From: a candidate division FCPU426 bacterium | GTDB taxonomy: Bacteria > Oederibacteriota > PGYV01 > Palsa-1178 | DNA: 64,000 nt | Assembly (NCBI GenBank): GCA_963840035.1 | Contig: CAWIXE010000001.1 | Location: 128,001 to 192,000, forward strand | Direction of reading: 5' to 3' | Shown: positions 1,779 to 4,042 of the stretch, in pieces | Position numbering within the stretch: position 1 is the first letter of the stretch | Layout of the letters: every line of letters begins with the position of its first letter | Position numbers and translations under genes: made by a program | The notes under the pieces: generated by a model | Seen by the model: only the letters and a program-made list of their open reading frames with translations | The model's database searches: none | Told to the model about the DNA's origin: nothing

Positions 1779-1879
1779 TTTTGTCTCCTGGTTGTTTTTA
1801 TGATTATATTATAATTGCGGGTAAATTCAATGTAAATCTTGAGAACCTTGGTCCAAGATCTAAAAGAGCATGTATATGT

Positions 1880-2099: not shown

Positions 2100-2140
2100 C
2101 AAAAACAACGTGGAACCCAAAAAAGCTCCACGTTGTTTTG
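2100..2140 (-). terminator. Intrinsic terminator of the small-peptide transcript
   Basis: Minus strand AAAACAACGTGGAGC-loop-GTTCCACGTTGTTTTT. Confidence 0.7.
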
Positions 2141-2176
2141 ATGTTACCCCTTTTGCTAGTTCCAATAAAAGAGTAC

Positions 2177-2215
2177 TTATTTTTTTTTCTTCTTTGCTGC
2201 TTTTTTCTTTGCCAT
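2177..2215 (-). CDS. Putative 12-aa Lys-rich peptide MAKKKAAKKKKK
   Basis: AAAGGGGG RBS, ATG, TAA; dedicated promoter upstream and terminator downstream. Confidence 0.55.
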   Translation of the reverse strand: MAKKKAAKKKKK

Positions 2216-2312
2216 TTGGATATCCCCCCTTTCAGTTTGAGAGATCTTTTTGTGAAGCTATTTGACTGCTTTCTGTATCTTGTGTCTGTCAATTTCCTCG
2301 AACTCTACATAT

Positions 2313-2340
2313 AGTATATATATTAAAGTTTTTTTGTCAA
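2313..2340 (-). promoter_or_regulatory. Sigma70-type promoter
   Basis: TTGACA-N16-TATACT on the minus strand. Confidence 0.7.
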
Positions 2341-2542
2341 TGATTTTATTGGTCAATACGGGTGTTTATAGGCATTTTTAACGTTTTTTTGCTTGTTTTT
2401 TTCGTTTTTTGCCTGTTTTCAAAGAATTCTATTGACTTTTTTTCCACATATTATGCACAGTAAGGTTGGACTAACATTGTTAAGGCATTTTCAATTTTGT
2501 ATTTTCAATTTTCAATTAATATCAAAAACATCAGCGCACATA

Positions 2543-2614: not shown

Positions 2615-4042
2615 TTATTGCGTTACAAACTTCTCCCCTTCATTCATAATATCCGCCAGGGTTTTTTCGTCCTTTGCCTCGCCGTAAAGCCTTACTATCG
2701 GCTCTGTTCCTGAGAACCTTGTCATTATCCATGTGTCTTCGCCGAGCATGAATTTAAAACCGTCGACAGTGATTGTTTCCTTTACTTCATATTTTCCTAT
2801 TTTCGCCATCTTCACTGTTTTTAACTTCTTTACAAGCGCTTCTTTTTTGGCGTCGGTGAGCCTGAAGTTTTTTCTGCTGTTTATGAACGGGCCTGTCTGC
2901 GCCTCAAGTTCCTTGACCAGGGTTTTTACGTTTTTCTTCGTCCTTGCCGCCATCTCCACCACGAGCAGGCAGGCGATGATGCCGTCTTTTTCAGGCACGT
3001 GCCTGTATATGGTCAGGCCGTTTGATTCCTCGCCGCCTATGATGATGTCCTCTTTTGTCATTATCTCGCCGATGTACTTGAATCCCACGGGCGTCTCGTG
3101 CAGCTTCAGTTTGTGCATCTTCGCCACTTTGTCTATCATGTGCGAAGTCGCCACGGAGCGCACCACGGAACCGTGCCAGTCCTTCCTTGTTTTTACAAGG
3201 TAGTCAAGCAGCAGCGGAAGTATCTTATTTGCCTGTATGTATGAGCCGTCCGAGTCGATTATTCCGTACCTGTCCCCGTCGCCGTCGGTTGCCACGCCTA
3301 AAATCGCCTTTTCCTTCTTTACCATGGCTATTAAATCAGCCACGTTCTTCTCAGCGGGTTCAGGCGGAAAGCCGCCGAAAAGGCAGTCTTTCTTGTCGTT
3401 TATAACCTTAATATTCGCCCCGGCCTCGGCTAAGAGCCTGTCTAAGTATCCCCTGCCTGTTGAAAAGAGCGGGTCAACGATTATCTTCAATTTTGACTTT
3501 TTTATGACGGAAAAATCCACTATCTGCTTAATCCTGTCGAGGTATTCCTCAGATGGGTCAAATACCTTTATAAGCCCCTGCTTTACTGCCGTATCCATAT
3601 CAACTGTTTTTACCATCTTTACTTTTTTAATATTAGCTTCTATCTGGTCAGTGTCGGCAGGTGTAGCCGGGCCGCCCCAGGAGGGTGAAAATTTAAGGCC
3701 GTTATATTCAGGAGGGTTATGCGAAGCGGTGAAATTGATGCCTCCGGCAGCTTTCTTCCTTATTATCTGATAGGCGATAACAGGCGTTGGAGTGTCCCTG
3801 TCGCAGAGCAGGGCCTTTATGCCGTTTCCGGCCATGACTTCCGCGGCTGTCTGTGAGAACTTATCCGATAAGAACCTGGCGTCGCCCCCTATAATAACGG
3901 GCTTGCCCGCGAGCTCTTTTTTTGACTTTATAAAGGCGGCAATAGCCTGGCACACGGTCTTTACGTTATCAAACGTAAAGTCGTCGCTAATAATGCCCCT
4001 CCAGCCTGATGTGCCGAACTTGATATCTGATTTGTTTGCCAT
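2615..4042 (-). CDS. Phosphoglucomutase/phosphomannomutase family protein
   Basis: FGTSGWRG, TASHNP catalytic Ser, DGDGDR metal loop, GEES, RFSGTEP. Confidence 0.95.
   Translation of the reverse strand: MANKSDIKFGTSGWRGIISDDFTFDNVKTVCQAIAAFIKSKKELAGKPVIIGGDARFLSDKFSQTAAEVMAGNGIKALLCDRDTPTPVIAYQIIRKKAAGGINFTASHNPPEYNGLKFSPSWGGPATPADTDQIEANIKKVKMVKTVDMDTAVKQGLIKVFDPSEEYLDRIKQIVDFSVIKKSKLKIIVDPLFSTGRGYLDRLLAEAGANIKVINDKKDCLFGGFPPEPAEKNVADLIAMVKKEKAILGVATDGDGDRYGIIDSDGSYIQANKILPLLLDYLVKTRKDWHGSVVRSVATSHMIDKVAKMHKLKLHETPVGFKYIGEIMTKEDIIIGGEESNGLTIYRHVPEKDGIIACLLVVEMAARTKKNVKTLVKELEAQTGPFINSRKNFRLTDAKKEALVKKLKTVKMAKIGKYEVKETITVDGFKFMLGEDTWIMTRFSGTEPIVRLYGEAKDEKTLADIMNEGEKFVTQ

Follow-up and report, generated by a model that had tools for sequence, protein, structure and literature searches.

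A conserved micro-gene upstream of ftsK encodes a candidate histone-H1-tail-like polycation under predicted NrdR control

The window analyzed here, a stretch of 64,000 nucleotides from the genome of a candidate division FCPU426 bacterium, harbors a short transcription unit between a phosphohexomutase gene and ftsK, the open reading frame of which comprises only 12 codons (hereafter, the micro-gene). The features of the locus are, from upstream to downstream on the minus strand:

2615 to 4042, minus strand: phosphohexomutase (pgm-type) gene, upstream of the micro-gene and with its own closing hairpin at 2541-2580
2440 to 2459, plus strand: double DnaA-type box, TTTTCCACA and TTATGCACA separated by 2 nt, about 100 bp upstream of the -35 element
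2313 to 2340, minus strand: sigma-70-type promoter, TTGACA-N16-TATACT, 11/12 match, kept across the order
2302 to 2317, minus strand: NrdR-type box 1, overlapping the -10 element and the predicted start site, 6/6 key positions
2270 to 2285, minus strand: NrdR-type box 2, 32 bp after box 1, 5/6 key positions
2222 to 2233, minus strand: very strong, G-rich Shine-Dalgarno sequence, 6 nt ahead of the ATG
2177 to 2215, minus strand: 12-codon ORF, MAKKKAAKKKKK followed by a stop, with 8 Lys and zero acidic residues
2142 to 2150, minus strand: conserved 3'-UTR motif, GGGGTAACA, present in 17 of 22 order members
2100 to 2139, minus strand: intrinsic terminator hairpin with T run
1808 to 1836, minus strand: separate ftsK promoter, 11/12 match (ftsK start at 1778)

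A preliminary description of this DNA had outlined the same succession of promoter, leader of about 90 nt, ribosome-binding site, 39-nt ORF and terminator on the minus strand, and all of these elements were found again in place. The -35 (TTGACA, 2340-2335) and -10 (TATACT, 2318-2313) elements are separated by a 16-nt spacer, and the Shine-Dalgarno sequence has a pairing energy with the organism's own 16S tail of -16.0 kcal/mol, as compared to -7.4 kcal/mol for ftsK and -9.5 kcal/mol for pgm. The terminator arms (2139-2127 and 2114-2102) form 13 bp, 100% paired, with the T run after them; a simple terminator scan did not list this hairpin (2139-2102). The micro-gene is single-copy in the 3.46-Mb genome.

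Several further elements were observed in its surroundings. An AT-rich short repeat of the ATTGAAAATTGAAAAT type, arranged in inverted pairs, lies at 2484-2520 and 2577-2611 and has about 300 BLAST matches genome-wide, being possibly a dispersed intergenic element. Two copies of a palindromic REP-like element of about 63 nt, together with a 22-bp hairpin, occupy positions 1886-1950 and 2009-2099, between the micro-gene terminator and the ftsK promoter; a further copy is found at C2:1143236, and the element is absent from most relatives. The N-terminus of FtsK (1778-1740, MAKKSGAKTAAKKGK) carries a Lys/Ala stretch like that of the micropeptide, and the FtsK starts of relatives are similar.

A DNA search of 61 genomes recovered the whole unit in all members of the family (7/7) and parts of it across the order. 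Of 24 order genomes, 22 carry the unit immediately ahead of ftsK; the two genomes without it are 82% and 89% complete, and the 5' end of ftsK is unassembled in both. The pgm gene precedes the unit in 14 of the 17 loci tested. In the seven genomes that encode an identical peptide, the ORF DNA is 97% identical and differs by synonymous changes only, whereas the neighboring 16-nt linker is just 41% identical. Together with compensatory changes at 8 of the 16 pairs of the terminator stem (RNAalifold, 15 aligned order members), this indicates that the unit is more than a chance arrangement. Across the order, peptides range from 11 to 36 aa and change in length by whole in-frame KKKA or KKKT units, while the other reading frames vary freely and keep neither starts nor lengths. 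The preliminary description had proposed a stand-alone coding unit for a polycation, to be recognized in relatives by a conserved ribosome-binding site and ORF between pgm and ftsK with synonymous variation. Such a pattern is what the order displays, and the presence of the unit in nearly all its genomes, its own terminator and its variation by whole codons support that proposal well. On these comparative grounds we regard the micro-gene as almost certainly a real coding gene. Two other coding candidates were discarded: an overlapping 65-aa ORF (2292-2095), which has no NCBIfam match and conserves neither start nor length, and a second ORF or frameshift through GGGGTAACA, a motif found 7 to 26 nt past the stop, in all three phases and with no fixed frame among order members. 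A decayed second copy of the unit was observed at one locus (L218, G013:C61) about 1.3 kb upstream of HU; it retains the box pair and the terminator, with the -35 element and Shine-Dalgarno sequence eroded and the ORF down to 6 codons.

The retention of GGGGTAACA irrespective of frame could also mean that the RNA of about 205 nt is active, alone or additionally, either as an sRNA acting through this motif, whose pairing energy with the 16S tail is -9.8 kcal/mol, or under antisense control from a promoter-like site (9/12 match) on the plus strand at 2286-2315. Nevertheless, RNAalifold on 15 members found the terminator as the only structure, with no leader structure or end pairing, and Rfam returned no family for the unit at the gathering score and nothing relevant at E-value level. 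Moreover, the conserved leader motif is accounted for as box 2, GGGGTAACA was not seen in the distant loci inspected, and the -35 of the antisense site overlaps the box linker, which is so poorly kept within the family; the antisense promoter itself is not conserved and was rejected. An active RNA seems improbable to us, and the dual-function sRNA of about 200 nt suggested in the preliminary description finds no conserved structure beyond the terminator in those 15 members. Still less probable, by a wide measure, is a leader that senses lysine or polybasic stalling and governs whether transcription continues into ftsK or other genes downstream. It is true that ftsK lies downstream throughout the order and that translation can slow at consecutive Lys codons (PMC9207662), but ftsK is under its own promoter, as had been surmised earlier when a Lys-sensing leader was judged less likely, and we concur with that judgment. 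No conserved antiterminator was detected by RNAalifold in the 15 members, the downstream genes differ among lineages and often lie on the opposite strand, and tandem copies of the micro-gene exist.

The peptide family extends well beyond the order. A strict pattern matched 30 of 99 phylum genomes, versus 2 for a reversed control, and 32 of its 34 matches in the phylum are short in-frame ORFs, with two copies in four genomes. An SD-anchored pattern, applied to GTDB, yielded at least 119 loci, which form a non-random sample; among the matches listed, 110 of 123 are in-frame Lys/Ala ORFs 10-19 aa long, as against an expectation of one in three. According to record titles, the listed matches include Acidobacteriota, Nitrospirota, Methylomirabilota/Rokubacteria, Planctomycetes, Omnitrophota, Binatia and other delta-proteobacteria, Alpha-, Beta- and Gammaproteobacteria, Verrucomicrobia, Gemmatimonadota, Bdellovibrionota, Patescibacteria and DPANN archaea. 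Matches in metagenome-assembled genomes point to Nitrospira, Syntrophobacter and Terriglobia among the carriers. In viral contigs, short in-frame ORFs account for 9 of 26 matches. The family signature consists of an MA(K/A/T)KK start and a KKK-stop end, and the composition over 140 ORFs is 66% K, 26% A and 4% T, with Arg at 0.5%. Tandem arrays of 2-3 ORFs occupy 17 of 105 loci among the listed GTDB matches. A crude terminator script flagged 45 of the 110 listed GTDB ORFs, a count too rough to rely on. Neighboring genes are diverse (86 of 156 flanking ORFs scanned, NCBIfam, E<=1e-12); one distant copy lies about 135 nt past nrdG and ahead of smc, and another after nrdJ. Because the peptide is of low complexity, common descent across phyla cannot be shown. 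Among loci L101, L156 and L111, two from Patescibacteria place the micro-gene between serS and secA, and one labeled as Nanoarchaeota has an identical serS context and 3' sequence; the latter contig may, given this match, be mis-binned or transferred.

Tiny size, strong basicity, a strong Shine-Dalgarno sequence and a wide distribution that includes the identical 12-mer in Rokubacteria, among the matches listed, are also what might be expected of a small ribosomal passenger filling an rRNA pocket, after the manner of eL41, bS22 (PF08213) or bTHX, which are likewise very short, very basic and missed by gene callers. These proteins are of fixed length and contain Arg. The micropeptides, unlike them, vary in length and copy number, from 11 to 36 aa within a single order and with one to three copies, which is not the behavior of a pocket-filling protein, and they are nearly devoid of Arg. 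This free variation, combined with the presence of a separate 29-aa bS22-like ORF with a Shine-Dalgarno sequence in the same genome (G000:C2:422281; PF08213, E 0.028, below cut-off), makes the passenger a poor fit. In addition, no ribosomal-protein family was named among the flanking ORFs scanned, and a sequence search with the 36-aa form gave no PDB match. We consider such a role, which the preliminary description had entertained, unlikely, the lengths spanning 10-36 aa when the wider family is included. A second small basic ORF with a Shine-Dalgarno sequence was noted at C2:306604 (32 aa, Lys/Arg-rich, no Pfam match).

The promoter of the micro-gene offers a different line of evidence. Box 2 is a 16-bp palindrome, of which the conserved leader motif forms the left half; with box 1, it reproduces the two-box architecture over a promoter reported for NrdR, and the key positions used here (C4, A6, A8, T9, T11 and G13) were taken from the same source (PMC13584703). 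Box 1 carries C4, A6, T11 and G13 in 22 of 22 order members and 5-6 of the six key positions in 21 of them. The pair is spaced by 32 bp in 19 and by 31 bp in 3 of these 22 members, and the 15-16-bp linker is unconserved in sequence. The right half of box 2 is degenerate in several relatives, and 10 of the 19 members in which the boxes lie 32 bp apart retain only 3-4 of the six key positions of box 2. NrdR has been reported to need two boxes and to bind with linkers of 14-17 bp (PMC12051234). This genome encodes nrdR (G000:C2:1393249-1393686; TIGR00244, E 1.5e-62), nrdD and a class I/II reductase, and nrdR was found in 94 of 99 phylum genomes. In one relative (G010:C2:3280-3718) nrdR is apparently split by a frameshift, yet the micro-gene promoter retains both boxes.

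With the published consensus, the micro-gene pair ranks second in the 3.46 Mb, behind the nrdD promoter. With a matrix trained on the nrdD promoters of 20 other order genomes (this genome, G000, being left out, along with L070 for too little upstream sequence and L055 as a duplicate of L056), it ranks fourth genome-wide, with two nrdD pairs and the HU-operon promoter ahead of it; neither scan detected a pair at the class I/II RNR promoter of this genome. At wrong spacings, control pairs scoring 12-25 also turn up in this genome; the rank in a single genome is therefore weak alone, and conservation is the real test. Among the 329 promoter-like sites of the genome (76 with TATACT) the micro-gene comes first with a score of 18.5, the next reaching 0.1, and hence the -10 element alone does not explain the box score. 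Over 34 phylum ORFs, the spectrum of spacings peaks at 32 upstream (7.4), with the other 42 spacings between -2.3 and 2.6, and it is flat downstream. Two observations concern other sites of the genome. The nrdD promoter (G000:C1:665677-665840) contains two pairs of NrdR-type boxes, the strongest box being overlapped by a DnaA-like 9-mer, and a balanced NrdR-like pair (7.7 + 6.3, 31 bp) at G000:C2:1537192 precedes an ORF of 90 aa whose product resembles a DNA-binding protein of the antitoxin type.

Box pairs were also found at 6 of 15 ORFs from other orders of the phylum. In the GTDB loci listed, 21 of the 101 scorable (in the other 4 of 105 the upstream sequence was too short) have a pair scoring at least 8 at 30-33 bp, against 6, 12, 3 and 5 such pairs in four groups of wrong spacings. 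Among these listed loci, pairs occur in 9 of 15 Acidobacteriota, mostly at 30 bp, and at 33 bp in 4 of 4 Binatia and 4 of 6 delta-proteobacteria. The matrix, which derives from an AT-rich lineage, gave no pair among the listed 12 Rokubacteria, 12 Nitrospirota, 9 Betaproteobacteria and 8 DPANN loci. RNR promoters of Acidobacteriota and Binatia present spacings of 31-32 bp in 3 of the 4 genomes checked, versus 30 or 33 bp at micro-genes, and no pair in the fourth. Related genomes do not count as independent observations. Taken together, the sites point to NrdR as a probable regulator of the micro-gene in this order, and likely in a few phyla, rather than to a property of the whole family.

Of the 19 order genomes that have sequence at this place, 17 carry the double DnaA-type box, 14 of them at an identical offset and 3 at a shifted one, and 2 lack it, as judged by gap-free alignment on the -35 element; just two such pairs (<=2 mismatches) occur in the whole genome. 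In E. coli, DnaA binds double boxes 2-3 bp apart, including those of nrdA and nrdD (PMC11317965, PMC8203912). The GC-skew minimum of contig C1 lies near 400-425 kb and not at 130 kb, and the micro-gene locus was consequently discarded as a site for oriC. A near-perfect NrdR-type box was also identified directly after the -10 element of the HU-operon promoter (G000:C1:299521-299609; L208, with relatives L209-L215). It is present in 8 of 8 family genomes and its partner 32 bp upstream is weak, leaving essentially one strong box. The operon encodes a 197-aa exported protein (weak DUF3575 match) and, as its last gene, HU. Most other families of the order lack the box, and nothing comparable was found upstream of the second HU/IHF gene.

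In its regulatory layout the micro-gene thus resembles RNR promoters. E. coli nrdAB is under both NrdR and DnaA, the same two regulators predicted here, and the promoters of E. coli nrdAB and nrdDG and of S. coelicolor nrdAB and nrdRJ share with the micro-gene two 16-bp boxes with an unconserved linker of 15-16 bp. Boxes over the -10 and start region and an upstream DnaA pair 2 bp apart are common to both. The micro-gene differs in that a 12-codon peptide is controlled, in that box 2 is often degenerate and in the location of the DnaA pair about 100 bp upstream of the -35 element. The preliminary description had presented the micropeptide as strongly expressed. A conserved NrdR-type operator covering the promoter and an upstream double DnaA-type box, neither of which it had mentioned, call for a qualification, namely that expression is probably conditional.

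The closest histone-H1-like Lys/Ala proteins are Hc2 of Chlamydia (HctB, PF07382), BpH1 of Bordetella and the C-terminal domain of Pseudomonas AlgP. They share with the micropeptides a composition of Lys with Ala, Thr, Val or Pro, the lack of acidic residues and length variation through short repeats, and Hc2 and BpH1 are, like the micro-gene product, encoded by stand-alone genes. The micropeptides, however, measure 10-36 aa as compared to 150-350 aa, and they are two-thirds Lys, in contrast to the Hc2-type pentamers with two basic residues each, in arrays of 70 or more aa (PMC2848022). The MA(K/A/T)KK start and KKK-stop end further set them apart, as does the predicted NrdR/DnaA control, which is not described for H1-like proteins in the portions of PMC2848022 and PMC9239181 drawn on here. 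Pfam and NCBIfam gave zero families for the 27- and 36-aa relatives at E<=10. In the ESM-Atlas, 30 unnamed look-alike clusters were listed, the best three with proteins of 31-39 aa, and the nearest cluster with any Pfam family has PF07382 on 17% of its members (score 0.88), which we take as a lead only. In Hc2 and AlgP, the repeats of Lys and Ala have DNA-binding or DNA-condensing activity (PMC2848022, PMC9239181). By analogy, the micropeptides may work like a bacterial H1-like tail while falling outside Hc2, as the 27- and 36-aa forms have no profile match and the peptides are far too short.

A point against a DNA-specific role is that a 12-mer of this kind binds any polyanion. A real peptide could instead serve as a general polyanion buffer, for polyphosphate granules, RNA or nucleotide pools, or as a store of lysine or nitrogen, with the boxes representing lineage-specific tuning. 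The Lys/Ala repeats of AlgP organize polyphosphate granules (PMC9239181) and Hc2 binds RNA well (PMC2848022); the boxes are absent from most distant lineages, the tandem arrays of 2-3 copies suggest bulk demand and lysA adjoins the micro-gene at two of the scanned loci. Conversely, at least three phyla have NrdR-type pairs, in differing gene contexts, and no polyphosphate gene was named among the flanking ORFs scanned. We deem a buffer or store rather unlikely, if somewhat less so than the ribosomal passenger or an active RNA, and DNA appears slightly more likely than not to be the main target of the peptide.

Our main reading, to which we assign a probability of roughly one half, is that the micro-gene, with NrdR as its predicted repressor and DnaA as a predicted modulator, encodes a minimal histone-H1-tail-like polycation that acts on DNA and is made during DNA synthesis. 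The nucleoid-condensing role already contemplated in the preliminary description is, of the alternatives offered there, the one that fits best. NrdR loaded with dATP binds box pairs and blocks RNA polymerase, and dATP rises once DNA synthesis slows (PMC9110341). In the scheme we envisage, NrdR would release the promoter while replication is under way, DnaA would tune it through the double box, and the very strong Shine-Dalgarno sequence would allow many copies of the +8 peptide to be made. These would neutralize and compact new DNA electrostatically and non-specifically, the peptide acting as a gene-encoded equivalent of polyamines alongside HU; this coating step is inferred from peptide composition and promoter regulation. 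When replication slows, dNTPs would accumulate and dATP-loaded NrdR would again repress the micro-gene.

NrdR has been described as a repressor specific for RNR genes. A conserved NrdR operator on both a polycation gene and the HU operon would extend its reach from dNTP supply to DNA packaging. A literature search found no description of the micro-gene family or of an NrdR-controlled polycation, bearing in mind that the motif lists behind PMC13584703 and PMC9110341 could contain such sites. The members of the family fall below the size that gene callers and profile libraries can handle, and the peptide would not survive trypsin; the family nonetheless recurs across many phyla and both prokaryotic domains. 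More tentatively, it seems possible to postulate a class of H1-like micropeptides of 10-20 residues, unannotated in many uncultured bacterial phyla, DPANN archaea and some viruses and, in several phyla, wired to NrdR together with HU (and here to DnaA too), as a prokaryotic form of replication-coupled histone synthesis. If the peptide coats DNA, a widespread component of the nucleoid has been overlooked, and an oligolysine made by the ribosome would provide, should its reading as a minimal H1 tail hold true, the counter-charge for newly made DNA.
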